DNA of 64,000 nt from a virus. The stretch spans positions 1 through 64,000 of the IMG/VR virus record IMGVR_UViG_3300014208_000033; one strand, written 5' to 3'. The notes under the pieces are model-generated. The model did no database searches and was not told where the DNA came from. It saw only the letters and a list, made by a program, of their open reading frames with translations. Below are positions 152 to 61,351 of the stretch, in pieces. Both the position numbers and the translations under genes were made by a program. How positions within the stretch are numbered: position 1 is the stretch's first letter; each line of letters opens with the position of its first letter.

Positions 152-185
152 TAAAAAAACCCTTACGAAAATTCGTAAGGGTTTT
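152..185 (-). terminator. Hairpin/terminator whose apex is a copy of the 16-bp palindrome
   Basis: AAAACCC-TTACGAAAATTCGTAA-GGGTTTT, with a U-tract after the hairpin on the - strand, downstream of 206..403. Confidence 0.7.
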
Positions 186-205
186 GTCGCTTGCTACCCT
201 GGAGC

Positions 206-403
206 CTAGAACGGTATCGCCACCATGCGCCAAACATCGGCCACGAAAGCGGCGAGACAGATGCTACCAGAAACCAAACCAAGCAAACCAAGCAAAATGA
301 ACATGCCATGTACCATGCTATCGCCGGGCTCCCTCTCCGCACGAGCCCGATAGCAGTAGTCAAAACTTTGTGTCCTGGAACGTACCATCGACCGTAGCAC
401 CAT
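206..403 (-). CDS. Small membrane protein
   Basis: GGGAGG RBS 7 nt before ATG; hydrophobic C-terminal segment. Confidence 0.6.
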   Translation of the reverse strand: MVLRSMVRSRTQSFDYCYRARAEREPGDSMVHGMFILLGLLGLVSGSICLAAFVADVWRMVAIPF

Positions 404-444
404 ACGATTGCCTCCCGATTCTGAATCACTCTACACTAGATGCA

Positions 445-503
445 AAAACCCTGATACCTTGCATCGTATGATGGCATCATAGGATTGCAAGATATCAGGG
501 TTT
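445..503 (-). terminator. Long imperfect hairpin (terminator or RNase III-type processing stem)
   Basis: AAAACCCTGATACCTTGCA...TGCAAGATATCAGGGTTTT inverted repeat between two leftward genes. Confidence 0.65.
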
Positions 504-524
504 TACTCATTTGATTTGCTTTTG

Positions 525-1169
525 TTACTTACCCTTACCCTTATGCTCCTTCGGCTCCAGGGACGAAACCCGGAAGTCCCGGATCTGTACCGTCTGGACA
601 GGCGTGATACCGTCCTCCTGCGCAGGACCGTATCCCACGGCGTACATGCTACCATCGGACAGCTTGAGCACTCGGGCCGTGTCACCCGCACTCCCGACGA
701 GAACGACCGGCGCCGACATCGACGGAACGGCCACCTTGATCAACGTGGACACGTCCCGGCCCTTGCCGCGCTTCCGATACGTCATGGTTTCGTCGCACGG
801 GCTCCAGGACAGATGCAAGGCGCCAGCGACGATGTTACCGAGTACCGCCATGGCGTTTTGCAGCGCCCGATCCAGCAGCGTCCGTCCCTCGCGACCTTCG
901 GACTTCCTGAACGTCAGGTACGCGCGTACCGCTACTTCAGGACCGAAACCTGCATCCTTCGGAACGGCCACGATCATGTCGGGGCCAGCGGAGGCGATCA
1001 GCATCGTCGTCGCCGCCTTGCCCACGGCCAGTCCGTCCGTGACGCTGATTAGCGTCACGCGATCCTTGATCGATTCCCAGGTCTTGCGCGGCGCGCGATC
1101 CTTCTTTTCCTTGGTCGCGTCGTTCGTCGCGTCGTTCGTTTCCTGAGCCTGAGCCGTAATCTTAGCCAT
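525..1169 (-). CDS. Hypothetical protein, 214 aa, GC-rich codon usage
   Basis: Long ORF with a GGAAGGA RBS and natural-looking composition. Confidence 0.75.
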   Translation of the reverse strand: MAKITAQAQETNDATNDATKEKKDRAPRKTWESIKDRVTLISVTDGLAVGKAATTMLIASAGPDMIVAVPKDAGFGPEVAVRAYLTFRKSEGREGRTLLDRALQNAMAVLGNIVAGALHLSWSPCDETMTYRKRGKGRDVSTLIKVAVPSMSAPVVLVGSAGDTARVLKLSDGSMYAVGYGPAQEDGITPVQTVQIRDFRVSSLEPKEHKGKGK

Positions 1170-1240
1170 GTTCCACTATCCTTCCGTTCCGTTCGATTTA
1201 GTCGTTTTGCTAAATCGATTTACTCTCTCACATGATGCAA

Positions 1241-1269
1241 AAAACCAAGCTTAGATCAAGCTTGGTTTT
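1241..1269 (-). terminator. Hairpin AAAACCAAGCTT-AGATC-AAGCTTGGTTTT
   Basis: Perfect 12-bp stem with A/T tracts. Confidence 0.65.
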
Positions 1270-1837
1270 ATTGGTTTGGTTTACGGTACAGTCTACAATC
1301 GGCATCGACGGTCGATACCTCAGTAGACTTGATCTACCAGTAAACCTATTCGCATTTTCAATGATCCTTGCCTAGCCGTGCCGCCCCTCCAGGGGACATG
1401 CTCGGGTCGGACAGTCTTACTCTATCCAAGATGCATGCCAGATTCAGAATTTTCGTAATAACGGCTCCAGGAGCGCATCCATTACCCTGTTACCCTGGTA
1501 TGTTAGTCTCTTTTCATCCTATCTAACACGCAAAGTCTTTTTGCCCAAAGTCTATCCTCCGCTCCAGATGCCGATTCCACCTATGCATCGCTTTATCCTA
1601 GTCTCAAACCCTAACACGGTCGATTGATCCTATCACTCTACCCTATAGCCTATCCTGGAGCGCATCTAGCATCAGGCTCAAATTGTCCTACGTCTTACTT
1701 GCCGATACCCTTTGCGCCACTATGAGACTAGTCTAACACGATGCTAACATCGGCAGTTTTATTGTATCCTTTATCTTAAGAGACTCAAGCCCATGGCGTA
1801 GTATCCTCCGGCTCCAGGAAGCGCATCTAGCACCATA

Positions 1838-2007: not shown

Positions 2008-2553
2008 CTATCAAGTTTTGACTATCAATAGTTGACACTACCATCATTTTCTGATACCTAAGCTCATTTCTGGAGCCTACTTATCACGCAAAGACTCATG
2101 GCCATTCCTACCTCCGCTTATCAAATTTCGCTTGATCCTATCATGATTCTGGCATAGTTATTGAAACCCGCTTCACTACTGGATTCTTCTCCAGAATCGA
2201 TTATCTAGGGTGTCATGGTGTCCTAGTACCTTTGAGCCTGCTAATGCTTCTCAGTGTAACCTGGAGCGTTTACGGGCATGGCTTGCATGAATAGCGATTC
2301 TGATACTGATAGCATCACGCAAAGGTATCACTACTGCAACAATTCCGAATTTTCGTAATGTGGCATCACGTTTGCTTGCTACCCTTTGCGTGATTCTACA
2401 ACGGTAAGATTCTTGTGTGCTAGATTTTGAAAATAGTTGATCTATTTGATCAATTGTAATCCTGGAGCCTAATCTCAATACAACATGCGATCTAATTTCA
2501 ATGCCGAAACGCCACCCTATTGCGATTCACGCATAGAGTGGAGGTAGTTGAAA

Positions 2554-2646
2554 ATGAGCAAGCTGCTAGAGGCAATCGCAACTGGCGCCGCTCCTTGCAT
2601 CGGCATCCTGGTAGGTTACTGGATCGCTAACGGCTTTACGTTCTAA
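2554..2646 (+). CDS. 30-aa hydrophobic peptide MSKLLEAIATGAAPCIGILVGYWIANGFTF
   Basis: GGAGG RBS; below the ORF-track size cutoff. Confidence 0.55.
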   Translation: MSKLLEAIATGAAPCIGILVGYWIANGFTF

Positions 2647-3193: not shown

Positions 3194-3335
3194 GGAGGCA
3201 GGTGATCAACGCACAGTTTGGTTTTTTTTCGACTTTCCGAATCATTCGTAATCTATAGCGTTAAGGGTAAGGAAACAGGTTATCAGCGCACAGTTGAGTA
3301 AATTTTGGTTCTTCAGAAACGTTCGTAAACTGTAG
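3194..3335. repeat. Two imperfect direct repeats (period ~77 bp), each ending in a 17-bp variant of the dispersed palindrome
   Basis: CAGGT(G/T)ATCA(A/G)CGCACAGTT...TTCCGAATCATTCGTAA / TTCAGAAACGTTCGTAA. Confidence 0.75.
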
Positions 3336-3392: not shown

Positions 3393-3431
3393 AAAAAACC
3401 CTCCGTTCCGAAAATTCGGAATACGGAGGGT
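3393..3431 (-). terminator. Rho-independent terminator of the leftward block, built around the palindrome
   Basis: - strand CCCTCCGTA-TTCCGAATTTTCGGAA-CGGAGGG followed by TTTTTT, just after the MTase stop. Confidence 0.8.
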
Positions 3432-7424: not shown

Positions 7425-7822
7425 TCTATCTCCTTCAAGAACTCTTCAATCTCATTTTGAAGAGAAGAAGTCATATCATTAGTTAGGCACCTAACTAACA
7501 AGTTCTTAGCTTTGGTTAACTTACTAGAATCGTCGAGTTCCCACTGGCAATCCATGTTTTTACGCTGCTCTGCTGTGTAAGTATCATCACTGTGGCAACA
7601 ATCAGTTCCGCTATTTGATTCATCTCTCATCTTGGAATAGTTACAGAAACCATCGCTAGCGTCGTTCCAATATTTGCAAAAACAACACGCATCGTCCTCA
7701 TGATTTTTACATTGCTTACGTTTGATGTTACGCTGGAACCACTGAACTTCCCAGTGTTTGCATTTGTGGTTTTCCGAAATTTCGGAACCACACTTATCGC
7801 ACTTTAAGATAGATACCACCAC
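7421..7822 (-). CDS. Cys-rich hypothetical protein
   Basis: Multiple CxxC motifs. Confidence 0.6.
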   Translation of the reverse strand: MVVSILKCDKCGSEISENHKCKHWEVQWFQRNIKRKQCKNHEDDACCFCKYWNDASDGFCNYSKMRDESNSGTDCCHSDDTYTAEQRKNMDCQWELDDSSKLTKAKNLLVRCLTNDMTSSLQNEIEEFLKEIE

Positions 7823-9072: not shown

Positions 9073-9413
9073 TCCTTTGCGTCAAGGATTTCCAATTCAG
9101 CGGTAGTAGGCTGATAGATACCAACAGAAACCTTATCACCACGAAGGTTCACAGGTGAAGTAGACCCGTAAGCATTAACGACATAGACGACACCGTTATG
9201 AACAATCAACTGACCACAAGAGAAACGAGTCTTAGCAACATAAGGGGTAGCTGTAGGAACAGGAGTAGAAGAAGGAGCGATCTCAGTTACAGTAGGATTG
9301 ACCTGAGTTGCAGGAGGAGTACAGAAACCAAAATAGTAAACGAGTCCACCGACGATAGGAAGGATAATGATAGCAAAGACCATTGAGAAGTTATTCTTCG
9401 TGTGACTGTGCAT
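9069..9413 (-). CDS. Membrane-anchored protein with a Pro/Thr-rich linker
   Basis: TM segment then TPPAT...STPVPTATP. Confidence 0.65.
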   Translation of the reverse strand: MHSHTKNNFSMVFAIIILPIVGGLVYYFGFCTPPATQVNPTVTEIAPSSTPVPTATPYVAKTRFSCGQLIVHNGVVYVVNAYGSTSPVNLRGDKVSVGIYQPTTAELEILDAKE

Positions 9414-9705
9414 CGTTAAACCTCTTCTTAATTTCGTCGTTAAAGAAAGTCTTACCCTTTTGTGTAACTACAAAACCCATTCCGTTATCTCCATGATAAA
9501 ACCTCTCGATGAAACCCTTACGAGCGAGAATGTAGAGTTTAGCATCGATGAGTTTAGTTGGAGCATCAGGAAACAGTCTTTGAATTTGTTCGATGTATAT
9601 GTAGTCCCTTTCATTAGTGAGTGAGAGAAGCTTTACAGTGTCGAGATCCTTAGCTTGCATTTCACCAACTCTTCTTTGCATTATCGATGATAACTCTTGA
9701 TCCAA
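9391..9705 (-). CDS. Possible winged-helix DNA-binding protein
   Basis: LYILARKGFIE...FVVTQKGK resembles a wHTH wing. Confidence 0.45.
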   Translation of the reverse strand: MDQELSSIMQRRVGEMQAKDLDTVKLLSLTNERDYIYIEQIQRLFPDAPTKLIDAKLYILARKGFIERFYHGDNGMGFVVTQKGKTFFNDEIKKRFNDAQSHEE

Positions 9706-11405: not shown

Positions 11406-12026
11406 TTACCATTTAACCCATCGATGAAGAGTATCACCAGTATAGCCACGCTTCCACACAAACCAGTTATAGTCTTTCGTTCCACCGGCAGGCTTAGGTG
11501 TTCCATCGGGCCACAACTGAGGTCGAGTAGAACAAGAGTAGATCATGTAAGGTCTACCCCAATGATTATCCGATTTCGGAATTTTCGTAAACCCGTCGTA
11601 CCTGTACTGAGCACACTGGTATCCAAGCGGGAGAAAGAAGCAAATGTACTTAGTAGAAAACTTCTTTGACTTCGCAAGAAAAAGGTCTGCTCCTTTTTCC
11701 TTGTAGGGTGGGTTGGTGATCACAACTCCGAAACGCTTTGTGACTTTCTCAGGGTCAAGCTTGAGAAAATCAATCCCACCCTTACCATTCTCCCAAATGT
11801 TATCAGTTCGTATGTCAACACCGTAGACGTTCTTGTAACCAAGCTTAACCAGAACCTTTGCGAGTCTACCAGATCCGCAGGCGGGCTCAAGTATTTCTGT
11901 AGAGGCTCTTATCTCTTCTGAAGCGAAGAAGGATCTTACAAAAGCCTCAGTACAATCCTCTGGTGTTGAGTATACGTCATGACCAGTGAAAATCTTACGA
12001 CGTACAATTTCATTACCGTTACGCAT
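11406..12026 (-). CDS. N6-adenine DNA methyltransferase (small phage type)
   Basis: YSTP, EPACGSG (motif I), TNPPY (motif IV). Confidence 0.85.
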   Translation of the reverse strand: MRNGNEIVRRKIFTGHDVYSTPEDCTEAFVRSFFASEEIRASTEILEPACGSGRLAKVLVKLGYKNVYGVDIRTDNIWENGKGGIDFLKLDPEKVTKRFGVVITNPPYKEKGADLFLAKSKKFSTKYICFFLPLGYQCAQYRYDGFTKIPKSDNHWGRPYMIYSCSTRPQLWPDGTPKPAGGTKDYNWFVWKRGYTGDTLHRWVKW

Positions 12027-12428: not shown

Positions 12429-12970
12429 TCATCGGCCCCGATCATTATTGCAAACTCTTGGCATTCCTTGCAACGCTCGTCCTTCGGAGGAGATTCAGAA
12501 AATTCGTAATCTTCCACTCCGATGTAATACTTCCCGCAGGCAGAGTTACCCTTGACGAACAAGTGGAACCTCGACCTTTGCGATGGCATGATCCACCCGC
12601 TACCTTTTTCACCAAAGATATCGTTGTTGATCATGTCTGAGCTAGTTGATACGTTCAGAAGGAACTCACTGATGATCTCAGTGTAGATTCTCTTGAACGT
12701 TTTATTGTGCCTATGAGTCAGACCATCAGCAACATGAGCAAGCTCATGCGCGAGAGTATCAAGCTGAGTGAACAAAGGTAAAGTAGTGTCAATAGACACT
12801 ATGTAATAGTCTAAGTTTGGGAACTTGACAGTATAACCATATACACCTAATTTCTTTTTCAGATTGTCGTTATAAACTACCTTCACGTTTCGGTTCTTTA
12901 AGTTGTGCTTCTTTTCGTACTTGTAGTACGCATCACAGACTGTCTTATAGGGATCGAATATGTTGATCAT
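12425..12970 (-). CDS. HExxH zinc metallopeptidase-like protein (SprT/ImmA-like)
   Basis: DTLAHELAH...H..F motif. Confidence 0.7.
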   Translation of the reverse strand: MINIFDPYKTVCDAYYKYEKKHNLKNRNVKVVYNDNLKKKLGVYGYTVKFPNLDYYIVSIDTTLPLFTQLDTLAHELAHVADGLTHRHNKTFKRIYTEIISEFLLNVSTSSDMINNDIFGEKGSGWIMPSQRSRFHLFVKGNSACGKYYIGVEDYEFSESPPKDERCKECQEFAIMIGADE

Positions 12971-13832: not shown

Positions 13833-14382
13833 ATTCACGCCTTCCAAACGTGATAACGTAGAACCGATCATCAAAGTGCTTCTCAAGCATAGGCTTCACA
13901 GCAGCCCAGTCAAGCTCGCCATTACCGCAACCGGGGCGAACAGTAACAACCCTCTGCCATCCCATGCGATCAGTAAGCTTACGAATTCGGCTAGCACTAC
14001 GATCAATCAGATCAAAGTCAGCCTTGCACGCCCAACCTGGAACAAATCGACCATCATTAGCAAACTTGCTCTTGTACTTCTCCATGACGAGATGATCGAC
14101 TTCCTTGCAATACTTCACAAGGATAGGCTTCACCGGAAAAGTAACAACCGCGTAACGCTGATCGATGGTGAGGACAATAGGAGAGTTTCCGAAATTTCGG
14201 ATTTGTGCTCCAAGCAAACGAGGGAAATACGGCCACTTGTCAGCAGCAGCCTTAGCGCACCCGCGTCCCATCACAGCACAACCATCCTTGCGAACATATC
14301 CGTTGGTAGTAATGCAGATAGCGTCGAAATTACCAAGACCAAGCTGCTCCGGCTCGAAAAGATTACCATTGACTTCACGCAT
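13813..14382 (-). CDS. Macro-domain (ADP-ribose binding/hydrolase) protein
   Basis: GNLF...ITTNG...VMGRGCA...TFPVK...PGCGNGELDW..VK. Confidence 0.85.
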   Translation of the reverse strand: MREVNGNLFEPEQLGLGNFDAICITTNGYVRKDGCAVMGRGCAKAAADKWPYFPRLLGAQIRNFGNSPIVLTIDQRYAVVTFPVKPILVKYCKEVDHLVMEKYKSKFANDGRFVPGWACKADFDLIDRSASRIRKLTDRMGWQRVVTVRPGCGNGELDWAAVKPMLEKHFDDRFYVITFGRREYAPRQE

Positions 14383-15408: not shown

Positions 15409-15853
15409 TCATTTTCTGCTTTCTCTTCTTCTCGATCATGTGTTTGAACTCTAACCAACCAGATAATGACTTGTCTCTGAGCTTCTGTTCTGATCCTTCT
15501 TCGTGTTTTCCGAAATTTCGTAACCAGTTGAGGTACTCTTCAAGCTTTGAGACTTCCTTGATGTGAATCCTAGAGAATTTCTCACCGATAGGGCTCCAGA
15601 AGAAGTTCATAAGGAAGATTGAGAAGTCTACGTTGCCTTGATGAAGCCTATCTATGAACAAAGTCTTGATTTTACGCCAAGACTTCTTCAAATCTGGTAA
15701 AGATATGTCAATTTTCTTCTTTTTGCACTTCTCTTTGACTAAAAACAGCATTTCTTTCTCAGTAGAGGAGAATTTGTTGATGTTTTTAGGCTGTAAGAAG
15801 TCCATTCTCTTCTCTTTAATGCGTCTTAACCACTGTAATTCGCGTTTTGTCAT
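15398..15853 (-). CDS. Hypothetical protein
   Basis: ATGA overlap. Confidence 0.65.
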   Translation of the reverse strand: MTKRELQWLRRIKEKRMDFLQPKNINKFSSTEKEMLFLVKEKCKKKKIDISLPDLKKSWRKIKTLFIDRLHQGNVDFSIFLMNFFWSPIGEKFSRIHIKEVSKLEEYLNWLRNFGKHEEGSEQKLRDKSLSGWLEFKHMIEKKRKQKMNEI

Positions 15854-20238: not shown

Positions 20239-21524
20239 TCGACAGGTATTGCACAGAGCGAATGAGGTTAGTGTGGTCTGAGAAATCTAAGTACGACACC
20301 TGGCTTTCAATCGAGTTAGCGTTAGTCAGAGCATTGAAGAAGATGGGTAAGCTCTCTCAGGAAGAGTTAGAAGTCATTGAGCGTCGTGCAAGTTACGAAA
20401 TTTCGGAAATCGTAACCTTAGAGAAAGAACTAAGGCACGATGTTGCTGCATTCGTTAGAAACGTTGAAGAGAGAATCAACACATCTGAAAAGCTTGGTCG
20501 TTTCATTCATTACGGGATTACTTCTTCTGATGTTGTTGACACAGCTAACGCCGTCCTTTGCGTGAAGTCTCTGAATATTCTCATTGGCTCAATCGATAAA
20601 GCGATGATTCTTCTAAAGGCTCTCGCTTGCAATTACATTCACGATAAGATGATGGGGAGAACGCATGGGCAGCATGCTGTTCCCATTACCTTCGGTCTTA
20701 AAGTCGGATCTTGGTTCACCTTCTTAAAGCGTTCACGCCAGCGCGTCATAAACGCTAAGAATGAAATTGCTGTTGGTAAACTTTCTGGTCCTGTTGGTTC
20801 GTGTTGCTACCTTCCTCCTAGTATGGAGGGTGAAGTTCTTTCTGAGTTCTGCTTGACTCCAGAGCCTATTGCTACTCAAGTCGTCGCAAGAGATCGTTAC
20901 GCCTCGTTAGTATCATCTCTCGCTATTATGGCCTCATCGATTGAGAAAATCTGCACTGACATTCGTTCCTTAGCTCGTTCCGAAATTTCGGAACTCTCAG
21001 AGGGTTATGGGGTTAACCAGCGCGGCTCGTCGTGCATGTCACACAAGAAAAACCCCATCTCTTGCGAGCAGCTTTGTGGGTTAGCCAGGATAATGAGGTC
21101 TTACGTCAATGTTTCGATGGAAAACATTGTTCTTTGTGATGAGAGAGATATCAGTAACTCTTCTGTTGAACGCATTATGCTTCCTGATGTGTTTAACCTC
21201 TCTCATTATATGCTTGACTCTTTTTCATCGATAATTGAAAACCTCACTGTTAACACCTACGCTATGAATTACAACTGTGGTGAAGGCGAAGCTAAGTGGT
21301 CAAGCGGTGCTATCCTTCTCAAGCTCATTGATTACGGGTTCTCACGGGATGAAGCTCATAAACTTGTGCAAAGTTCATTGGAGATGTACGGCTCATTCGA
21401 TCCTTCATCTTGTCTTGACTCATTTGATAAGGATGATTTTGAGAAGTGCTGTGATGTTGGTATGCATATCAGATTTATAGAGCTTATCTTGAACAGAGGT
21501 GGGATCGACACCAAATTAAGGTGA
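20235..21524 (+). CDS. purB: Adenylosuccinate lyase
   Basis: MIDRY, RHDV, HYGITSSD, GRTHGQHA, GSSCMSHKKNP, ERDISNSSVER. Confidence 0.95.
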   Translation: MIDRYCTERMRLVWSEKSKYDTWLSIELALVRALKKMGKLSQEELEVIERRASYEISEIVTLEKELRHDVAAFVRNVEERINTSEKLGRFIHYGITSSDVVDTANAVLCVKSLNILIGSIDKAMILLKALACNYIHDKMMGRTHGQHAVPITFGLKVGSWFTFLKRSRQRVINAKNEIAVGKLSGPVGSCCYLPPSMEGEVLSEFCLTPEPIATQVVARDRYASLVSSLAIMASSIEKICTDIRSLARSEISELSEGYGVNQRGSSCMSHKKNPISCEQLCGLARIMRSYVNVSMENIVLCDERDISNSSVERIMLPDVFNLSHYMLDSFSSIIENLTVNTYAMNYNCGEGEAKWSSGAILLKLIDYGFSRDEAHKLVQSSLEMYGSFDPSSCLDSFDKDDFEKCCDVGMHIRFIELILNRGGIDTKLR

Positions 21525-24034: not shown

Positions 24035-24079
24035 GTTTTCCGAAAATTCGTAATTTAGAAAGAGAAAGGTGCTTTCAGC

Positions 24080-33432: not shown

Positions 33433-36400
33433 ATGTTCGCTTGGGATGGATACTTCAACGCTTCTGCTGAACCTGATGCATCCACCCCCGTCTGGACTAA
33501 GACGGGGGTGGATCATGTCACAGCTAGCGCGAATACGTTAGTGTTCGCTAACTGTGGTACAGACCAGTGTTACTATGAGAGAACCTTTACACTCAGAGAT
33601 GATTCATTCTTCCTGTTAGACTTCAAAGCTAAGGTTGAAACTGGTCTTGTTACTAGACAAGTATGCTCATTCAACATAGTCAACTTGTTCAATCAGTTCG
33701 TTGTATTAGACATAGTTGATGGTAAGATTTTCGTCAACAGGACCGATGAGACAGTTGAGTGGTTTGAAGATGAGATCGCTTACGACACAACTTCAGACTA
33801 TGTTCACTTCCAGATAAAGTTCCTGTACACTGGTGAGTATTATGTGTTCATTGAAAACCAGTTGTTCGTAACAGGTAAGAGTACATATCAAACTCCATTC
33901 TATACAGCAAACAGAGTATTTTTCGGTAAGGTAAGCACTACAAGTGAAAATCATGAGTTCTTCATAGATGAAGTCAAATACGCTACTGTAAGTGATATCG
34001 GTGATGTGTCATCTACCTTTGCCGTTGAGGTAGATAAGACTGGTAATGAGCCTATCATAGCTATTGAGGCTCAGTTAGACTCTTCAGTTGTGAAAGAGTC
34101 ATTCGACAGTCATACGAACTTCACAGCTTATGGGAGTGCTGATACTTTATCAACTGATATAGTTACTAAAGAGCAAGGTGCTGGTGCAGTAAAGTTCAAT
34201 AAAGCAACTTCATCTGCATTAGTGAATGATGTTGTATATGATGGAGTAGCATTACCGGGTTCCTCTACACCATCATGGACTGTTGTAGGAACAGAATCAG
34301 CAAGTGTAGGAAGTGGTACATTAACTATAGCTGATTGTGGAATAGATCAGTGCATTTACAGTAAAACTATTACTCCTCTAGTAGACGGTGAAAGCTATTG
34401 GTTGAAAGCAAGAGTTTTTGTGGATGGTGGTGCCGGAAGCAATGAGAAACATTGTATTCGTTTAGGATCTTCTAAAGAAGTTGTCGTTACATTATACTGG
34501 AGTAGATTGTACATTTCTGGTACAACTGAATTAGATTATTCGGCTAACTTATCCTCAGACTTTGTTATAATCATAATAAGAGTAAAATACGATGGAACGT
34601 ACTATGTGTATCTGAATGACACTTTAATTAGAACCGGAGCCGGTCATGATCTAGCGTCCCCTGCTGTTTCATTTGGAAAATCCAAAACAGGAGTTGCACC
34701 TGCTGGTCCGGTTCCGTTTTTTATAGACTATATTGAGTACAGCAAATTAAAAGATTCGATATATTCTTCATTGAATATGTACAACGGTGCTTACTCCGGT
34801 CTTACTCGAACTAACCACTTACAGCTTACAGACTTCAACAGAGGCCGCACCTCATTCTATATCCCCGCTGTTGATCTCGCAAAGGTTTCTAAGCTGCATG
34901 TTGTGTTGGATGAGAGTACAGACCTTAGTAAGTATTCACACTATGAGAAAACGACTGGTCTTGTAGCTGGATGGAACCACTTTGACTACACCTTAGCTTC
35001 ACCTGATAATGTAGTCGGGACTCCTACAAGAGATGATATCTTGAGGTCGTTCTACTATTACGAATTTTCGCAATCTAGCGACACCTCTACTGGACTCATC
35101 ATCGACAACAACAAATACTTCTACTTTGCGGATGATACTGCTAGGTGGGCTAAGACTGATATCTTAGGGTACACCAACAACCACTTTTGGGAAGGTAGAG
35201 TCTTATCATTTGGAGCAGTTGAGCGTTCACTATCTGAGAGACGAGGGCTCTTTGACATTGGTGGTCTGTCAATCGTATTAGCTAACACAGATAAGAACTT
35301 CTTAACTAAGTACAATAAGTATGGTAGAGCCCCAGGCTTTAAGAACAAGACTATCTCAGTCAAATTGGGTTATCGTAACATTCCGTATTCTCAGTGGGAA
35401 AAGATATATGAAGGAGTCATCGAAGAGATAGGTATTGCTGGTAGGTGCTTTACTATTGATGTAGCCGACTACACCAAGATGTATTTTGATCGTGTTCCGA
35501 AGAACTTATTAGATCCTGTTGACTTTACTGCAATAGATGAAGGTGACAAATACACACCTGCACCAATAATTTATGGTGCTATTAGTGCTACGGGTGGCGC
35601 GCTTCCTACTATATATGTAGGTGAGCATGTACACACAAAGCATTACTACATCATTGCAGGTCACTATTGCAAGTCAGGAACATGCGAACTTTACGTCGAT
35701 GAGCAACTTTTTGCTTCTGGCGGAACACTCTTATATGGAGAAGGTGTAGACGAAGTAGCCATAGCTGTTTCATTCGTCGTTGACTACGATTACACGATCA
35801 ACGGCAAGAACTACTGTGTAATCGTTGTCGATGAGATAGACAATCCTGATTATGATCCAGGTACAGAAGGAAGTTTAGAACACATCAATCCGTTTGATGG
35901 TCGTGATATCACTGTTAACATCAGTGGTAAGACGATTGATGGTACTTCTGCTGGAACTCTTCTCACTGACGTAGTTGATTCGTTCTACGATTTTCTCACT
36001 GTTGAAAATCTTGTACCTGTTGCTCTTATTGACACGGTTTCATTTGCTGCAACTAAAGTGATCTTGAATCAACGAAATCAGATCATGGCAGGTGCGGTAG
36101 TTGCAGATAAATCAACTGAAGATGTTATCGAGGAAATATGTGTTTCTCATAACATCGACTTTTACTTCACTAAAGAAGGAAAGTTTGCTATAAGCACTTT
36201 CAATCCAGCTAAGTCTGACGTTACTACGAAAATAGTAACTGACGAAAGTGATATTCTTCAAAGCTCGTTCAAGATCAATCCAGGTGTTTCGATCCTTGTG
36301 AATAGAATCAGATTCCGGTATGACTACAATTACGTTAAAGAAACATGGGAGGGGTCGAATAAGTCTGAACGTCAAGAGTCAATTGATAAAGCTGGTCAGA

Positions 36401-38643: not shown

Positions 38644-39780
38644 ATGTTACGAATTTTCGTAATCGTGGCGCTCCTCTGTGCTTGCACAGCGGAAGCGTCC
38701 TTCAACAAAGACACTTTCACTACTCCCACAGGTGTTGCGCCTATTGGCAACGGCTGGACGATGGACACCTCGTCTGGTAACTTAGTGTTCAAATACAATG
38801 ACGTTGAGAAAGGTTCTCTTACTCAAGCGGGTGTCTTTACCGCTGCTACCGTTACAGCTAGCACCGCTCTTAATGCCGCTGCTGTTCGTGATGCTGCTGG
38901 TACTGGTGCGGTTGCATTAACAAATGGAGCCGTCGTTTCCGCGAGCAAGGGCGTGCTGTTCACTGGTGGAGCCGCGCCTACAGCACCAACTACCGGAATC
39001 ATGATCTACGGTGGCACTCTTGCTAATCAATGTGTAGAGATTCAAGGTGCGAGCGGTGCTAAGTCTGGTCTTTCGGCTACTAGGCTCGCCCTCGGCCCGG
39101 CGGGGTCGGCGTTGCCGAGCTACGTCGGGTGCTACAAGGGGTATCCGACGTGGACCGATGGCGCCGTTGAGGCCATAGACGTTTCCGGGTCTGGCGTTGG
39201 CGGCACCGGAGATTTCTATGTAAAGGGCACCGGTAGCGGATTTGGATTCGCGTCAAGCGGGGACACGTCGTTTACGGCTACTCAAATAGGATCAGACGGC
39301 TTTAGGAGCAAGGCATTAACTGCCCCCGCTCCGCTAACCTACGGCCTCACCCTCCCCGGCAGCGCCGCCCCCTCCGCTCCGACGACGGGCGTCGTGCTCT
39401 ACGCGGATCTCGTCGGCGCTGGCGTGAACCCGACGGTATATGCGCTCAAGGCCACGTCTGGCTACTCGAATATCCAAGCGGGGGTCGTTTCTGGATCAAC
39501 CGTCTTTGGGTCAACCGTCAAGGGCACCAATTTTTATGGTGGTTCCTCCGCTAGCGGAGCGGGAACCGCAGTTCCGCTTAGTATCGGCGCTTACACGCCG
39601 ACAGGCTACGGCATCGGCATCGGCGTTGCCGCTCCGACGTTCAACGGGCTCAGGATACTCAAGGGGACGAACCCGTTGGTGGGGTATGCGGATACTGCTG
39701 CTATTTATACAGACTCAGCTTCAGAGAGTTTAATCTGTACGTTTGACACTGGTGCTGTTACAGCCGTCACGCATCCATAG
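38644..39780 (+). CDS. Signal-peptide-bearing Gly/Ala/Thr-rich fibre-like protein
   Basis: MLRIFVIVALLCACTAEA|; AAP.APTTG repeats. Confidence 0.75.
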   Translation: MLRIFVIVALLCACTAEASFNKDTFTTPTGVAPIGNGWTMDTSSGNLVFKYNDVEKGSLTQAGVFTAATVTASTALNAAAVRDAAGTGAVALTNGAVVSASKGVLFTGGAAPTAPTTGIMIYGGTLANQCVEIQGASGAKSGLSATRLALGPAGSALPSYVGCYKGYPTWTDGAVEAIDVSGSGVGGTGDFYVKGTGSGFGFASSGDTSFTATQIGSDGFRSKALTAPAPLTYGLTLPGSAAPSAPTTGVVLYADLVGAGVNPTVYALKATSGYSNIQAGVVSGSTVFGSTVKGTNFYGGSSASGAGTAVPLSIGAYTPTGYGIGIGVAAPTFNGLRILKGTNPLVGYADTAAIYTDSASESLICTFDTGAVTAVTHP

Positions 39781-43853: not shown

Positions 43854-43974
43854 CCCCCAACGAGGGGAACGCATCTGTAAGATCGTAACGGATGACCGTT
43901 GCTGAGATTACGAATTTTCGGAATGTGGTAAGAAATGGGAACACATTAAAAGCGTAACTGATAAGGAGATCAAA

Positions 43975-44515: not shown

Positions 44516-45375
44516 TAGAAGAAAAAGCACCCTCACTTGACCAAATGATTGATGGTCTTGATAAGACAAAAGAACTACATGAGTCCATCGAGAAACGACC
44601 TGTCCACTTTGAGATTTACGAAAAATCGGAACAGGCTATATGGATTTTCTTATCTGACTTACACCTTGGCGCAAGAGGGGTGGATTACAAATACTTCAAG
44701 TCGATAGTAACTCTCTTGCGGAAGAACCTTAATATTAAGGTAGCTATGGTTGGAGACTTGTATGATAACTTCCTTCATTTCGTGTCTTTACGAGGAGCTA
44801 ATGACTCTGTTGCCCCTCCTTCAGTTCAGATAGATATGATAATGTCTTTTCTTGAGGAACTTGATGCTAGAGATCAGCTTCGTATAGTTGGTCTTGGTAA
44901 TCATGATTTGATCCGAGAAGAAAAAGCAGTTGGGTATTCAGTCATAAAGAAGATATCAGATTCATCGATTAGATCGAAGATACTTGAGGGTAAAGGCAGA
45001 ATAGCTCTTTCAGTTGGTAAAGATAAGAAGTCTGCTGAGTTGTATCAGATCATCATGACTCATCAAGCTGCTGGTCATTCGATTTATAACCCAGTTCATG
45101 GCGCGATGAGAATTGCTAGAATGGAAGGGCACCCTGACGTAGTAGTTACTGCCCATACTCATAATCCAGCTATGATGATCTACAAAGAAGCTGGTAAAGA
45201 TATCATAGCCATTAAGTGCGGAACGTTCAAGACTAAAGACGCCTACTCTGAGTATTTCTATTGTAACGGTAAGATCGGCATACCGTGCATTGTGTTCTGT
45301 TCACATGAGCATAAGATGATACCGTTTGGAAACCCCGAAGACTTATTGGTTTATATGAGGGGAATGAAGAAATGA
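44512..45375 (+). CDS. Calcineurin-like metallophosphoesterase
   Basis: SDLHLG, GDLYD, GNHD, HTH. Confidence 0.88.
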   Translation: MIEEKAPSLDQMIDGLDKTKELHESIEKRPVHFEIYEKSEQAIWIFLSDLHLGARGVDYKYFKSIVTLLRKNLNIKVAMVGDLYDNFLHFVSLRGANDSVAPPSVQIDMIMSFLEELDARDQLRIVGLGNHDLIREEKAVGYSVIKKISDSSIRSKILEGKGRIALSVGKDKKSAELYQIIMTHQAAGHSIYNPVHGAMRIARMEGHPDVVVTAHTHNPAMMIYKEAGKDIIAIKCGTFKTKDAYSEYFYCNGKIGIPCIVFCSHEHKMIPFGNPEDLLVYMRGMKK

Positions 45376-47014: not shown

Positions 47015-47272
47015 TTACGTCTTACGCTCTTTGTCATATTCTCTTATGACGAGCATCATTCTCTTACCGCACTTGGTACAGTCCTTACGCTCTATCTTCG
47101 TCATAAGAGTATCTAGGCTTTCCTTGAGGCTACGCACCTTACACTTACGGCACACATGAAAGTAGTCTATGACGTAGCGCCGCTTGGTGATGTTTTTACG
47201 AATTTTCGGAGCGGCTGAAAGTGATGGAACAGTCTCAAACTTGGTGCGCTTCGTGAGTTTGTTCTTCTTCAA
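47015..47272 (-). CDS. Basic Zn-ribbon protein
   Basis: CRKC...CTKC. Confidence 0.6.
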   Translation of the reverse strand: MKKNKLTKRTKFETVPSLSAAPKIRKNITKRRYVIDYFHVCRKCKVRSLKESLDTLMTKIERKDCTKCGKRMMLVIREYDKERKT

Positions 47273-51591: not shown

Positions 51592-52451
51592 ATCATATAC
51601 CTTTCACAAGTACAACAGTGTTCGATGTGTTCTTGCTTAGTCATTCTATTTCGGATCTCATTCATTCTAACCCCATTGAAAGCTTCATAGATATTCCCAT
51701 AGAAAGGAGCATCAAAGAAGTCTCCAAAGGTACACTTAGCATTCAAATCAGCACAGCACTTACCAACTTGCCAGTTAGAATACAGAACGAGTGTATTGAA
51801 AGGGAACGAACACTGTTTCGGGTACTGATAGTTACAATTATCAGTAGGTCCATTATCCCAATTATGAGTCTTACGAACATATGTTCGAGAATTGAGAAAC
51901 ATTATTTCATTATACGCTTGAATTAAATTCACATCTGGAACATCATACATTATTCCATTAGGAATGATAGACTGAATAACGGTCTTAATGTTCTTAGACT
52001 CATACACTCTCTCGCAATGGTCCTTGATCCTAAGAGCTATATTTCCACGGTTCCTGATACCGCGCGTAAGCTCATAAGTATTCTCATCGTAACCGTCGAG
52101 AGAGAAGCTAATAGTGGTTACAGATTTGTCGTTAGGGAGCGACTTGAGGTGTTCCGAAAATTCGGAACGCCACAGAGAGCCGTTAGTGTGAACTAAGCAG
52201 TTATAACCTAAGATGTTACAGATTGAAATGAACTTCAAGAAATCAGGATGGGTTGTAGGCTCACCAGAAAGAAACAGTCTAATCTCAGGAAGATTCTCAG
52301 GGTGCTCGATCTTATATCGCTCAAGCACCTCATGAAAAATCTCAGGGTCCATAAAATGAACTAGTCGCTTTTTCTCGTCACCACAGATACGGCAGTTGTA
52401 ATTACAGCCGTTAGTGATCTCAAAGTTGACTACCTGTAACTGAGACTTCAC
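51588..52451 (-). CDS. Radical SAM protein with a SPASM/twitch domain
   Basis: EITNGCNYNCRIC, GEP, TNG, SLDG, C..P...CC.D...C..C. Confidence 0.9.
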   Translation of the reverse strand: MKSQLQVVNFEITNGCNYNCRICGDEKKRLVHFMDPEIFHEVLERYKIEHPENLPEIRLFLSGEPTTHPDFLKFISICNILGYNCLVHTNGSLWRSEFSEHLKSLPNDKSVTTISFSLDGYDENTYELTRGIRNRGNIALRIKDHCERVYESKNIKTVIQSIIPNGIMYDVPDVNLIQAYNEIMFLNSRTYVRKTHNWDNGPTDNCNYQYPKQCSFPFNTLVLYSNWQVGKCCADLNAKCTFGDFFDAPFYGNIYEAFNGVRMNEIRNRMTKQEHIEHCCTCERYMI

Positions 52452-53038: not shown

Positions 53039-53819
53039 TTTTACCAAATCTCTCTTCAAACTCTTTTGACCACTTATTGTAGAGTTTCTGCTTGTTACGC
53101 TCAAAGTCTTCCACTACTGTAATTCGGTTCTTCCTCTTGAAGTCATCGTAGAACGACAAGAAAATCGGAAACGACAAATAGTGAAAGTTCTTGTGGAAGT
53201 GAGTAAGGATATAATCCCAGTCAACCAATCGAGTGAACTGTTCATCAAATCTGATATCAGACTTAGAGAAGAAACACTGATTCAAGTCAATTCGATTACT
53301 CTGCAACTCAGCCTTAAAGTCCAGGTTAGGCTCAACCCTAAACCCAACGTGGAACAATCCTGGACTGTTGTGGTAATGCTTCTGCTGCCTGATAACAGCC
53401 TGCCCCACGCAAAGGAGGAGTCGTTGAGTAAGAGGCTCAAGCTGAGGATACTGCTTCATCAGCTTAATGTGGTCAGTGACTTTCTTCAACGCCTCGATAT
53501 GATACCAGTTATCACAGTCAAGGAACCCGACGTATGAGCCTGCAACATTCTCAAGGCCAACGTTCCTACTGTAGCTCACACCTTTGCGTTTGTTGTTTAC
53601 GATTATTCGGATTCTTGGATCAGCTAATGCTGCATGCATTTCATCTCTGAGACAACCCTGAGACTTTTTACCGTCAAAGATGATATTCCACATGAAGTTC
53701 GTGTGAGTCTGTGCAAGCATGTTCGTAACACAGACTTGAAAGAGTTCATGGTTTGGCTTGTATACAGGTGTGATGATAGTGATCTTATCATCTAAGTGTT
53801 GCTTAAGATCGACGATCAT
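53001..53819 (-). CDS. Glycosyltransferase, GT2 family
   Basis: IITPVY, SRN.GL, FLDCD, DWD. Confidence 0.88.
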   Translation of the reverse strand: MIVDLKQHLDDKITIITPVYKPNHELFQVCVTNMLAQTHTNFMWNIIFDGKKSQGCLRDEMHAALADPRIRIIVNNKRKGVSYSRNVGLENVAGSYVGFLDCDNWYHIEALKKVTDHIKLMKQYPQLEPLTQRLLLCVGQAVIRQQKHYHNSPGLFHVGFRVEPNLDFKAELQSNRIDLNQCFFSKSDIRFDEQFTRLVDWDYILTHFHKNFHYLSFPIFLSFYDDFKRKNRITVVEDFERNKQKLYNKWSKEFEERFGKNERVIANRPAKV

Positions 53820-58264: not shown

Positions 58265-58662
58265 AGTTTCTTAAAATGACACCCGTTCTCATCTCTATGA
58301 ATATTGAATATCCATTTACCTATATCACCTGCCCCGGTTGTAGCAAATGGGTCTGTTCCAAATTTTACTTCTTCTGAAGTATCTGGATTACAACTAAAAC
58401 CGTAAGGTTCTTCAGAACTGTTTGAAGGAAACACGATCAGTGTAGTTCGTGTTTTGTTTATCCACTCTGCTCGTATATCTCCATCAGGAGACGGTACAAG
58501 CCAGGGAACTTCTATATCGTAAAAAGCTAAAGCACCTTCTATGTAACAACTGACTCGATCTATGTGTTCTTTCGTAAAAGCTTTTCCGTCACCATCAAAC
58601 CAACCGTCTTCCAAACCGGCTATCTTGTTTAACTCTTGCTGTAACTTTTCATTCATACACAT
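58261..58662 (-). CDS. Hypothetical protein
   Basis: L.DGW.DG.G...P.PDG.I..EW pattern. Confidence 0.65.
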   Translation of the reverse strand: MCMNEKLQQELNKIAGLEDGWFDGDGKAFTKEHIDRVSCYIEGALAFYDIEVPWLVPSPDGDIRAEWINKTRTTLIVFPSNSSEEPYGFSCNPDTSEEVKFGTDPFATTGAGDIGKWIFNIHRDENGCHFKKL

Positions 58663-59554
58663 ACTCTCTTTTCAGACTCTTCCAGAGTTTGTAGGATTTG
58701 ATATCACAAGGGTCACAGCCTTCGGGGAGGTAGATGCGGTTGAGGTCAACTAAACCTCTCAGTTGACTTGCTAGGAGTTTGGTGCCTGCTTCCCCGGCCT
58801 CGTCTGAGTCGAGACAGAGGTAGACTTTGGACCAGTGTTTGAGTATTAGGTTGATTTGTTCTGTAGAGGGCTTTGATCCAGATAATGATACTGATGGTTC
58901 TCCGTGTTGTAATACACGCCAGGTATCTCTCGGACCTTCACAAATGATGACATAAGGTTTTGATTTGGATATATCGATTCCGTAAAGGTAATGCTTTTTG
59001 GGGAACTCATATTTGTACTTTCCATGAAGATATTTGAGAGCATAGCCAACACAGCGATCATTATGCATGTATGGAAGGATAAGAGAATCAGAGTGCAGAA
59101 AGTTTCCCATAGGATCTTTTGCAAGATCGATACCGACACCAAGAGTATGAAGTACGTCAACATCGAATTTGTTCTCCAAGACGTGAGGATGGTTGTACGG
59201 TATCAATTTGTAAGTCTTAGGAAGTTTAACTTCCTGTTCCACGAACTTAAAGTTCTCGACTGGATCATCAGCAAACACATCAGTCGGATCATAGTGGAAC
59301 TTATTGGTTAGAATATACTTAGCTCTGTCGTAAGTAACTTCAGCTATGAGCGTTACGAACTTAGTGATTGTCCCTGATTGCCCACAGTCAGCAGAGTAGC
59401 AATGCCACTTACCAGTTCGCGCATTGATTGAAGAGTTATGCTTTTGATGGCCTGAGGATTGGTGAAACGGGCAGAGGTACTTTAACTCGTCGTCACATCG
59501 ATGCACAATTGGTACATCGTAGTAGTTAAAGACTTCTTCGACGGGAGGACGCAT
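58649..59554 (-). CDS. DNA primase (CHC2 zinc finger plus TOPRIM)
   Basis: CPFH, WHCY...C, ICEG..D, LDSDEAG, D.CD. Confidence 0.9.
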   Translation of the reverse strand: MRPPVEEVFNYYDVPIVHRCDDELKYLCPFHQSSGHQKHNSSINARTGKWHCYSADCGQSGTITKFVTLIAEVTYDRAKYILTNKFHYDPTDVFADDPVENFKFVEQEVKLPKTYKLIPYNHPHVLENKFDVDVLHTLGVGIDLAKDPMGNFLHSDSLILPYMHNDRCVGYALKYLHGKYKYEFPKKHYLYGIDISKSKPYVIICEGPRDTWRVLQHGEPSVSLSGSKPSTEQINLILKHWSKVYLCLDSDEAGEAGTKLLASQLRGLVDLNRIYLPEGCDPCDIKSYKLWKSLKREYVYE

Positions 59555-59776
59555 AATACTCTCGTATATCCTCAGGAGTCCAGAGTTCACCTGTTTGAAA
59601 GTCCAAGATATTTTGGTCGTTCTTATCAAGAAAATACTCGCAAAGGAGGCTGTGAAATCTGACCTTTGATAAGGACGAATAATCATCGGAAGTCAGTTCT
59701 ACTCCATGAGGAAACACCCTCATTTTACTTCCACCTATGATTGGAACAAATTGAATGCAGAAGAACACACCACAAC

Positions 59777-60394
59777 TCATGGTAAGTACCTCATAAACAG
59801 TTTAGTCAAGTGACAAGAGGTTTCAATCTCGCTAAGAGTCCAGAAGTTCTTTCCCTTAACGTAGTCAATGTACTGCTTTTTGATTAGATGCCTAATCACA
59901 TTGTTGATCCTGGTAGTGGAGAAAACGAATTCCGAATATTCGGAAAGCAGCGCCGAGTCTTTGCAGGCGATGAGATTTTCTCCGACAAGTAAAACCGAAA
60001 CATCTGACGGATTCTTAATCTGCTTGAAGAAGGAGCCAACCTTTGCGAAGAGTTGCTTTCGTGATTGCAGAAATCGGTCAACGTAAACAGAGAAAATCGA
60101 AGCATAGATCCCCCCTATGCTCAGAACAACATTCTTCACTTCATCGAGTCCTCTATCGTCAGTATCAACTGAGTAGTTGATGTTATAGTCTCTGAACAGG
60201 TTGAACCAATACTGCTTACCAAGCTTCTTCTTCAAGATGTAGTTACGCTCTGGATTCTTGGAGTTCCAGTAGTTGAAGATCAACGGTAAGCACTTGATGG
60301 AGAATGTAGGATTGACGAGATTAAGATCCTTCACTCTCCAAGTTTCCAGGGTATCTCGTCTAACAAATCGTCGGTCACTGAAGGATCGTGGCAT
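59777..60394 (-). CDS. Hypothetical protein
   Basis: 205-aa ORF. Confidence 0.65.
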   Translation of the reverse strand: MPRSFSDRRFVRRDTLETWRVKDLNLVNPTFSIKCLPLIFNYWNSKNPERNYILKKKLGKQYWFNLFRDYNINYSVDTDDRGLDEVKNVVLSIGGIYASIFSVYVDRFLQSRKQLFAKVGSFFKQIKNPSDVSVLLVGENLIACKDSALLSEYSEFVFSTTRINNVIRHLIKKQYIDYVKGKNFWTLSEIETSCHLTKLFMRYLP

Positions 60395-60738
60395 TTGATG
60401 ACTCCGATGATCTTATGCAAATTATCATAAGTGCTTTCAAGGATATGACCTATATCTAAGTGAAGTCCATCATCATCGGTCTTGAACGCAAAGGAGGGTT
60501 TGATGATGCCTAAGCCTGAGACGTTGAAGTTTTTCTTGTGAAGAAGTGTCTCAAAGAAACACTGTTGGAAAATCTCATAGAGTGAGTCAAGTGTCGGCTC
60601 GTCTAGGTTAGTGAAGCGGAGCAATTTCTTGAAGATGTTTTTGTTGAAGTTGAATGTCTCATGATCTTTAGTGTGCTCTTGTTTGAGCCATGAGTCAATT
60701 TTGTAGTTGCTGCCGTATTTCTTACGACTTGGGTTCAT
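60331..60738 (-). CDS. Possible HU/IHF-like DNA-binding protein
   Basis: TNL....L...YEIF...F.ETL.....FNVSGLG.I resembles the HU fold. Confidence 0.45.
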   Translation of the reverse strand: MNPSRKKYGSNYKIDSWLKQEHTKDHETFNFNKNIFKKLLRFTNLDEPTLDSLYEIFQQCFFETLLHKKNFNVSGLGIIKPSFAFKTDDDGLHLDIGHILESTYDNLHKIIGVIKCHDPSVTDDLLDEIPWKLGE

Positions 60739-61351
60739 TGAATATCACATCAGATCGAGTCTTAACAATGTCTAACATCTTCTGAAGCATCTCTTTGATT
60801 TCCCACTGAGCGCCGTCTTTCCAGAGACGAAGCTTCAGAACGTGAAGAAGAGTTCTAGCATTCCAGGTGACAAGAATTGAGGTCTTAGCTGCACCTGGAA
60901 GTAAGTAACGGGCGTCCTCAAGTGGAATACCCTTGTCAATCATCTCATTGTATACGTCATACAGATCATTCACACAATCAAGATATTTCAAACCAAGTTC
61001 AGGATTATCGAAAATGGATTGAGGAACAATAGGATCGTTTTCTTGTTTGCAATACCTCATCGACAACTGATGGTATGAAGCTATTCGGTGCCTAACTAAC
61101 TGATGAGAACAACACCGTGAGATACCTTCAACTAAGAAGGTGAACGAGTGATGCTCAAGCAAGCTTGAGTGATCCATGTCGATCACGAACTTCTTAATGA
61201 ACCTGGAGACTTTTTCAAGTTCCGAATTTTCGGAACCGTCATGCTTATTATGACAAATCTTTGCAGCGTAGTAAGTAAGTTTCTCTAAGTCTGTATCACT
61301 ATATTCATTGAGCTTGAGAAACTTCGTCTCAGCTATCAGTTCTACTTTCAC
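60722..61351 (-). CDS. thyX: FAD-dependent thymidylate synthase
   Basis: HSSLLEH, SR..SHQLVRHR.ASY.Q.S.RY, EDARYLLP, AQWEI. Confidence 0.95.
   Translation of the reverse strand: MKVELIAETKFLKLNEYSDTDLEKLTYYAAKICHNKHDGSENSELEKVSRFIKKFVIDMDHSSLLEHHSFTFLVEGISRCCSHQLVRHRIASYHQLSMRYCKQENDPIVPQSIFDNPELGLKYLDCVNDLYDVYNEMIDKGIPLEDARYLLPGAAKTSILVTWNARTLLHVLKLRLWKDGAQWEIKEMLQKMLDIVKTRSDVIFNEPKS

Follow-up and report, generated by a model that had tools for sequence, protein, structure and literature searches.

We analysed the first 64 kb of the virus record IMGVR_UViG_3300014208_000033 (positions 1 to 64,000, hereafter the window), in which a 16-bp palindrome, TTMCGAAWWTTCGKAA, recurs in and between genes. 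The full record measures 107,668 bp, is linear by its IMG/VR class and is ~71% complete according to CheckV, with ~29% of the genome estimated to be missing. Public sequencing runs that contain the phage are groundwater metagenomes, and relatives occur in wastewater and freshwater. The genes typical of tailed phages (terminase, portal, head protease and major head protein) are accompanied by replication genes coding for a family B DNA polymerase, a DnaB-type helicase, a primase, a RecA-like protein and an SNF2 helicase. An SbcC-like protein is also encoded, as are ThyX, a radical SAM protein, glycosyltransferases, a PurA/PurZ-like ligase, two to three DNA methyltransferases and a ribonucleotide reductase (RNR) interrupted by an intein (genome 82,982-86,242 region; L096 4982-8242). 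Positions marked L096 and L097 are local coordinates, L097 17389-17668 corresponding to genome 107,389-107,668. All gene positions come from a simple open reading frame (ORF) caller of our own and a hand-curated version of its output, no trained gene finder being used. No GenBank phage has a terminase more than 28% identical to the one encoded here, and no other protein among 5.8 billion exceeds 44% identity to the capsid protein. The phage is apparently lytic, uncultivated and unrelated to mycobacteriophages.

A dispersed palindrome selected at the DNA level

The palindrome array is a real and statistically overwhelming DNA-level signal. Exact copies number 13 in the window compared to 0.00 expected from 100 dinucleotide-preserving shuffles, and 23 copies have two mismatches or fewer compared to 0.31 expected (3 in the largest shuffle). 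The whole record contains 20 exact copies, 37 with at most one mismatch and 44 with at most two, while a loose form, TTNNGAANNTTCNNAA, occurs 33 times in it compared to 0.43 in third-order Markov simulations. A preliminary description of the window, made from the letters alone, had listed strong copies and variants with 17 bp or extra mismatches and placed their number far above chance; all of its coordinates hold, and so does the excess. It had also named codon-preserving shuffles as the control for selection on DNA. In 200 synonymous-codon shuffles that kept both the proteins and the codon usage, 2.2 exact and 6.0 loose copies were left on average (never more than 4 and 10, respectively), and roughly two of these exact copies are intergenic ones that the shuffling leaves untouched. 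Since the codon shuffles remove most copies, it is the DNA word itself that is under selection.

Outside the 16 bp the information drops abruptly, the flanking positions (e.g. −4 to −1) of the 33 loose copies carrying 0.1 bit or less. The 66 half-sites read TTCCGAA (32), TTACGAA (21), TTCAGAA (9) or one of four rarer forms. Inverted halves are separated by 2 bp in 21 of 22 cases and by 3 bp in the remaining one, so that the centres of the half-sites lie 9 bp from each other; half-sites in direct or everted arrangement were absent, and lone half-sites are barely above expectation. The central dinucleotide is made of A and T (TT 14, AA 7, AT 5, TA 5) except for two copies with TC. Both halves are identical in 15 of the 33 copies compared to 11.5 ± 2.4 under independence (P = 0.11), and only one of the nine copies with a TTCAGAA-type half, that at 48442, carries the compensating change in the other half. 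The minimum free energy (MFE) of the core RNA lies between 0 and −5.9 kcal/mol, with 13 of the 40 copies outside terminators at 0.0. With no covariation between halves and such weak folding, a hairpin is not the conserved feature. The pattern is consistent with a site in duplex DNA that a symmetric dimer recognises. Independent halves, the 2-bp spacer and the uninformative flanks all agree with the two half-sites and dimeric reader that the preliminary description had proposed.

Thirty of the 44 copies lie in confident coding sequences and 14 outside, the genes being on both strands. Among the coding copies, 18 are read in frame 2 (x-Ser-Glu-x-Ser-Glu), seven in frame 1 and five in frame 0; the translations SEISE, YEFSE, SENSE, LRNFG, LRIFV and PKIRK, in three frames and both gene orientations, were borne out. 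The host genes had been named as well: the adenylosuccinate lyase (PurB-like) gene with its two copies and the thyX and radical SAM genes were recovered, whereas the match of the presumed methyltransferase is weak and the supposed macro-domain ORF (13813-14382) has no Pfam match at E ≤ 0.001. The two PurB-like copies, SYEISE and RSEISEL, align gap-free to KIDVEL and RTEVLEV of the solved Thermotoga adenylosuccinate lyase (1c3u, 1c3c), and both sit at variable residues. The gap-free alignment indicates that the word arose by substitution at tolerant positions rather than by insertion; a length of 16 bp, which is not a multiple of three, also argues against insertion within genes. Together with the codon shuffles and the spread over frames and strands, this lack of indels upholds the earlier claim of selection at the level of DNA rather than protein. 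On the coding strand the central dinucleotide is AA in 13, TT in eight, AT in five and TA in two copies, showing no orientation bias relative to transcription.

Exact copies are over-represented in non-coding DNA (9 of 20 compared to ~13% of the genome as judged from the hand-curated ORF set, P = 4×10−4). Four exact non-coding copies (163, 3406, 101882 and 105502) form the tips of minus-strand intrinsic terminators, in which a long hairpin is followed by a T run, and a further copy, at 95259, is separated by 10 bp from a strong bidirectional terminator; a terminator that is palindromic anyway offers a low-cost place for a palindromic site. Although the copies spread over the whole genome, they are denser in the two end regions rich in small ORFs (0.53 and 0.63 per kb) than in the structural block (0.27 per kb) or the replication and metabolism block (0.17 per kb; P = 0.016). 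The mean gap between copies is 2.5-3.0 kb, in line with the interval of roughly 3 kb at which a protein had been suggested to coat the genome; the spacing itself is only slightly more even than random, in two of three site sets (coefficient of variation 0.71 compared to 0.97, P ~0.01-0.03).

Table 1. Copies of the palindrome in the window, candidate binding proteins, and terminators followed by a conserved tail.
Feature	Position	Strand	Context
Exact copy TTACGAAAATTCGTAA	163..178		Terminator tip for the minus strand; 28-mer hairpin of −16.3 kcal/mol, then T run
1-mismatch copy	1443..1458		GC-rich, apparently non-coding left end
Exact copy	2343..2358		GC-rich, apparently non-coding left end
17-bp variant, 3-bp spacer	3235..3251		Unit 1 of a 77-bp tandem duplication
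17-bp variant, 3-bp spacer	3312..3328		Unit 2 of the 77-bp tandem duplication
Exact copy	3406..3421		Tip of a minus-strand intrinsic terminator
Exact copy	7772..7787		In ORF 7421-7822 (−), reads GSEISEN; extended stem −13.1 kcal/mol
1-mismatch copy	11575..11590		In weakly methyltransferase-like ORF 11406-12026 (−)
1-mismatch copy	12494..12509		In SprT-like ORF 12425-12970 (−); alignment with relative X9 restarts exactly here after a replaced block
1-mismatch copy	14187..14202		In ORF 13813-14382 (−)
Exact copy	15508..15523		In basic ORF 15398-15853 (−), between two DNA methyltransferase genes
Exact copy	20393..20408		In adenylosuccinate lyase gene 20235-21524 (+), reads SYEISE
Exact copy	20978..20993		In adenylosuccinate lyase gene 20235-21524 (+), reads RSEISEL
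Exact intergenic copy	24038..24053		26 bp upstream of the major head gene start; X9 alignment restarts at 24037
1-mismatch copy	28774..28789		In ORF 28703-29155 (+)
1-mismatch copy	35058..35073		In 1142-aa tail ORF 33433-36861 (+)
Exact copy	38647..38662		Starts at codon 2 of ORF 38644-39780 (+)
Exact copy	43908..43923		Gap between the tail-fibre block and the next plus-strand block
1-mismatch copy	44616..44631		In metallophosphatase gene 44512-45375 (+)
1-mismatch copy	47196..47211		In basic zinc-ribbon ORF 47015-47272 (−)
2-mismatch copy TTCAGAATTTTCTGAA	48442..48457		In FAD-protein gene 47269-48588 (−)
Exact copy	52152..52167		In radical SAM gene 51588-52451 (−); extended stem −17.2 kcal/mol
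2-mismatch copy	53597..53612		In ORF 53001-53819 (−)
Exact copy	59930..59945		In ORF 59777-60394 (−)
Exact copy	61220..61235		In thyX gene 60722-61351 (−), reads GSENSEL
Weak candidate binder	9391..9705	−	Small winged-helix protein, MarR/HTH_45/HxlR-like fold; ESM Atlas model, TM 0.68-0.80
Possible HU-HIG-like protein, lead only	60331..60738	−	Feature score 0.84, TM about 0.5
103-aa protein with two AT-hooks (GRP cores), by eye	genome 75,199-75,510		Weak Pfam hints
240-aa sigma-factor-like protein, region 2-/4-like stretches by eye	genome 76,741-77,463		Weak HTH_6 match
Terminator and conserved tail	434-451, 1229-1246; L097 14367-14396, 15497-15522, 16856-16887, 17476-17507	−	

Relatives of the phage and candidate binding proteins

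A megablast near-identity search of the phage collection gave no match, no close relative was found in IMG/VR by capsid protein, and a scan of JGI metagenomes with the PurB-like protein also returned no match. Distant capsid relatives, at most 41% identical, amounted to 80 IMG/VR loci and 33 loci in bacterial or archaeal metagenome-assembled genomes (MAGs), ~1.45 Mb altogether. The palindrome is not enriched in these 113 loci, and they carry no analogous palindrome of their own; the MAG loci span many phyla. Scanning IMG/VR for the 16-mer yielded mostly single matches at chance level, apart from one high-GC contig family in which it occurs only as local tandem 9-bp arrays (TTCCGAAAT/TTCGGAAAT) beside a helix-turn-helix (HTH) gene, an architecture different from the dispersed palindrome of the groundwater phage. 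These high-GC arrays occupy one region of ~600 bp in IMG/VR 3300048836_001083 (5820-6310) and four related contigs, and translate as SEISEISE in overlapping ORFs.

Closer relatives were found among Logan contigs aligned over positions 7500-27499, at 85-99% identity in four runs. In X9, the most divergent of them (~85% identical), two alignment blocks restart at 12494 and 24037, the left edges of two palindrome copies, and the DNA that precedes them is replaced or unalignable. About 0.13 such coincidences are expected by chance among 54 joint ends. The reading of X9 covers two of the eight copies in 7500-27499 and draws on 40 of 2617 variant places. These block starts suggest that at least two sites have been retained where they stand, at the borders of swapped or diverged blocks.

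The preliminary description had offered a parS/ParB-like system as one candidate and two ORFs of the window as possible binders. A six-frame search of the 107.7-kb record, ~71% complete as it is, with PF02195 (ParB_N) gave no match at E ≤ 1, whereas the control searches gave matches in 11 of 14 genomes; likewise, six-frame searches of this record found no Phage_integrase, Resolvase, HTH_3 (Cro/CI-type) or Bac_DNA_binding (HU) domain. The proposed parS/ParB system thus found no support in the part of the genome that is covered. No ParA-type ATPase was seen among the proteins scanned against Pfam and PHROGs, no six-frame ParA search being made. The winged-helix fold suggested for ORF 9391-9705 is backed by its TM scores of 0.7-0.8; the ORF has no Pfam or PHROG match and no homologues among 5.8 billion proteins, and in X9 the segment that contains it is replaced by 488 other bases, which does not favour it as the binder. 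An AlphaFold single-sequence model of this ORF (pLDDT 50) was too poor for a structure search. For the ORF 60331-60738, described as HU-like, a weak HU-HIG lead was obtained and no Pfam Bac_DNA_binding match. The binder may be encoded in the part of the genome outside the record, or it may be a host protein.

Precedents and interpretation of the array

The closest precedent of the array is a 17-bp dyad repeat, TGTTCGGNNNCCGAACA, of the Cluster O mycobacteriophages (Corndog and its relatives), described by Cresawn et al. 2015 (PMC4351075). It consists of 7-bp arms around an A/T-rich 3-bp spacer and is present in more than 30 copies per genome (34 in Corndog); its authors regarded the dyads as sites for a dimeric protein and observed recombination between copies (PMC4351075). 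Both arrays are built of two inverted 7-bp arms with a short A/T-rich spacer, comprise tens of copies (30-40 in Cluster O) genome-wide, in and between genes and mostly away from promoters, and show no clear orientation relative to transcription. As in that class, the 44 dyad copies found here in 107.7 kb are absent from the 113 loci of distant capsid relatives. However, the sequences are unrelated, the spacer is 2 bp here and 3 bp there, and the arms are degenerate at two positions here and invariant in Corndog. The coding share is about two thirds compared to about one third in Cluster O, some of the present copies are built into terminators, and the phage belongs to an unrelated lineage and habitat. 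The array is a variant of a previously known but unexplained type of phage feature. Genome-wide arrays of a single palindrome have been known since 2015 from the Cluster O mycobacteriophages; the case reported here is statistically very clean, comes from an unrelated, apparently lytic 108-kb phage, and lies mostly inside genes.

A working model of what an array of dispersed sites can do is provided by the stoperators of Cluster A mycobacteriophages, which are bound by a phage protein (the L5 gp71-type repressor) that stops transcription elongation (PMC9283540). Stoperators resemble the palindrome in being short sites, 20-35 per genome or about one per 2 kb. In contrast, they are asymmetric 13-mers bound by a monomer, oriented with transcription, located mostly in short intergenic gaps, and they serve lysogeny, whereas the palindrome is symmetric and mostly within genes, and the searches of the record (~71% complete) for a repressor or an integrase were empty. 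A stoperator system proper was consequently rejected: the site is palindromic without orientation bias, and neither Phage_integrase nor Resolvase, HTH_3 or ParB_N was found in the incomplete record.

We favour, with evenly balanced confidence, the reading in which the 16-mers are docking sites for a symmetric, sequence-specific DNA-binding dimer that is most probably the phage's own. This reading would have a protein bind the sites as a dimer encoded by the phage itself. Each subunit would read one 7-bp half-site, TT(C/A)(C/A)GAA, with the two centres 9 bp apart across an A/T dinucleotide, and the phage would keep one site per ~2.5 kb. Sites would be put in non-coding DNA where possible, including the self-complementary tips of terminator hairpins, and would elsewhere be written into genes by the choice of codons and amino acids, most often in the Ser-Glu-x-Ser-Glu frame. 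The bound dimers could then act as roadblocks or reinforce terminators, mainly in early-type regions. As to the consequence, we tentatively propose, while holding it to be doubtful, that a lytic phage here controls transcription along its whole genome by means of roadblocks or reinforced terminators. This is favoured because the phage looks lytic, no partition genes were found, the early-type regions have the highest site density and some sites are placed in or next to terminators; a role in marking or organising the chromosome is our second choice. Related phages may also use the identical 16-mers as junctions at which to swap gene blocks, probably as a by-product.

Several observations weigh against this reading. 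Most sites are far from promoters and gene ends, and a classical operator role therefore does not fit; nor can a symmetric site give the orientation bias that backs the roadblock model of stoperators. Even spacing is weakly supported, being non-significant for the set with at most one mismatch (P = 0.14). No binder was pinned down by the six-frame ParB_N, HTH_3 and Bac_DNA_binding searches, and ~70 proteins scanned against Pfam or PHROGs included no regulator. The sole clear winged-helix candidate, ORF 9391-9705, lies in the block replaced in X9, unlike what would be expected of a protein with 44 conserved sites.

Among the alternatives, it is unlikely that the sites belong to a host regulator, such as a CodY-like winged-helix protein on two overlapping sites, which the phage would recruit or titrate. 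Overlapping CodY operators of Firmicutes consist of two 15-nt sites, AATTTTCWGAAAATT, that share 6 nt, with TTCWGAA cores 9 nt apart, and are read by winged-helix domains (PMC10415144). In geometry the 16-mer corresponds to the inner part of such an operator, its two TTC-N-GAA cores being centred 9 nt from each other and sharing AAWWTT in the middle; CodY sites are found within genes as well (PMC10415144), and our searches turned up no phage binder. The geometry noted in the preliminary description for the copy at 48442 therefore stands. The sequence fits less well: the core centre is C/G in 55 of 66 half-sites where CodY has W, a CodY-type A/T being present in 10, and the outer AATT arms of the CodY consensus are absent, the flanks of the copies carrying no information. 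CodY sites are moreover degenerate and read by DNA shape (PMC10415144), whereas the palindrome copies are near-invariant. The host of the phage is probably no Firmicute; the MAGs that contain distant relatives of the phage capsid belong to Desulfobacterota, Acidobacteriota and other phyla. To our knowledge, these phyla lack CodY. Loading sites for a CTP-dependent clamp of the ParB/KorB type, analogous to parS or to the KorB operators (OB) of RK2, from which the protein would spread for segregation, silencing or condensation, are a quite improbable explanation. Chromosomal parS sites and the 12 KorB operators of RK2 are likewise 13-16-bp palindromes dispersed over a replicon, some of them in genes, and act at a distance on many promoters (PMC11790492), and with ~71% of the genome in the record a ParB gene could be missing from it. 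However, those systems need a CTPase of the ParB family, which the six-frame ParB_N search of the record did not find, and there was no ParA-type ATPase among the scanned proteins and no integrase or other sign of a plasmid-prophage life. The palindrome shares only length and symmetry with the parS (TGTTNCACGTGAAACA) and OB (TTTAGCSGCTAAA) consensuses, which were checked against PMC12409273 and PMC11790492, and its 44 sites are more numerous and far denser than a sliding clamp needs.

The two X9 homology blocks that begin exactly at copies, beside replaced DNA, would also suit recombination sites, whether targets of a nuclease or recombinase or words kept so that co-infecting relatives can swap gene blocks, and the phage codes for RecA-like and SbcC-like proteins. 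Two 7-bp arms around a 2-bp A/T centre recall the crossover sites of serine recombinases. In Cluster O phages, too, deletions and insertions are bounded by the dyad repeat (PMC4351075). We nevertheless consider recombination sites distinctly unlikely, given that 44 active sites would scramble or delete the genome that carries them, that six-frame searches of the record found no resolvase/invertase or tyrosine recombinase, and that the two junctions on which the argument depends would look the same if conserved islands lay at the edges of diverged blocks. Still more improbable is a nucleic-acid hairpin in place of a duplex protein site, formed either by the RNA, as a stem-loop with a part in processing, stability or termination, or by the DNA, as a cruciform. 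A palindrome does yield the same RNA from either transcribed strand, four copies are real terminator tips, and some coding copies have long extended stems (−17.2 kcal/mol at 52152 and −13.1 kcal/mol at 7772). Against this, the halves are unlike in 18 of 33 copies, as expected of independent halves, and compensation was limited to one of nine TTCAGAA-type copies; a centre of 2 nt leaves too little room for a loop, the stem is not consistently extended by the flanks, and the core MFE, where it is not 0.0, is −1.4 kcal/mol or closer to zero in most non-terminator copies. That the word has no function and results from peptide repeats, codon bias or a small mobile insertion is extremely improbable: the Ser-Glu-x-Ser-Glu frame is favoured in 18 of 30 confident coding copies, but shuffles preserving proteins and codon usage lose ~90% of the copies, three frames, both strands and non-coding DNA all carry the palindrome, its length is not divisible by three and no insertion is seen in the PurB alignment. 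A mobile palindrome of the REP/MITE type was rejected because most copies lie in genes and both PurB copies are gap-free against 1c3u and 1c3c, a Chi-like signal because lone half-sites are not enriched, and a promoter because of the symmetry of the site and its position within genes. Restriction or modification targets are normally avoided, whereas the palindrome is enriched, and a symmetric site would turn a T5-type nick into double-strand cuts.

Returning to the dimer-docking reading, a broader form of it is, in our view, less likely than not: that a lytic-type phage in which neither ParB nor a repressor was found marks its whole chromosome for a protein of a new kind, its array being one of a widespread but undescribed class among large uncultured phages. 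The purpose could be to organise the genome, to silence it or to distinguish it from the DNA of the host, and the arrays would then shape which codons, and even which amino acids, are used in dozens of unrelated genes. The array shows that a signal in the DNA can prevail over the choice of codons and amino acids in enzymes such as PurB, ThyX, the radical SAM protein and RNR. Palindrome arrays may mark mosaic junctions and could mislead host prediction based on codons or motifs. The site is short and defined, making it directly usable for DNA pull-down.

Genome ends, terminators and other features

Runs of the pentamer (CGAGC)n are present at both contig ends, in 1-3200 and in genome 107,389-107,668. 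Of the 18 genomic occurrences of the octamer CCTGGAGC or its complement, 16 fall at the two ends. The left end (1-3200) is GC-rich (50% compared to 42%) and almost devoid of ORFs, and contains repeats of 37-66 nt built on GTAACGTTCCGTTAC hairpins at 1838-2007. The region of pentamer runs may represent the terminus or the part of the genome that enters first, or else contain a set of promoters specific to the phage. In the regions rich in small ORFs, strong minus-strand terminators are followed by a conserved tail, TTTTTGCATCA (plus strand: TGATGCAAAAA), which suggests terminator-promoter cassettes bounding many short transcription units.

A stretch of ~1.2 kb at genome 92,240-93,440 (L097 2240-3440) is GC-rich and ORF-free, carries two copies of the palindrome and could correspond to a large structured RNA. 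It is divergent from the gene of a basic 397-aa orphan protein (L097 3471-4664) that has no Pfam or PHROG match. Three SprT-like metalloprotease paralogues are encoded at 12425-12970, L097 1774-2241 and L097 11272-11622, each with a palindrome copy in it or right beside it (12494, 92194 and 101882, respectively). This association may be due to chance, as all three lie in palindrome-dense regions.

The full adenylosuccinate lyase gene (20235-21524) sits within the head-gene module, and the PurA/PurZ-like ligase (55908-57056), which matches PHROG 1211 (labelled as an adenylosuccinate-synthetase-type enzyme), is the first gene of the glycosyltransferase block. Both enzymes hint at a modified purine metabolism or a modified DNA base. 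The pentapeptide-repeat protein (ANLYGANLSGANL...) encoded at genome 104,404-104,952 (L097 14404-14952) could act as a DNA mimic. A group I intron (Rfam, 58.9 bits) at genome 81,568-82,263 (L096 3568-4263) adjoins an HNH-like ORF and a tRNA. At the tail-fibre position, five successive ORFs (38199-43853) start with signal-peptide-like N-termini.

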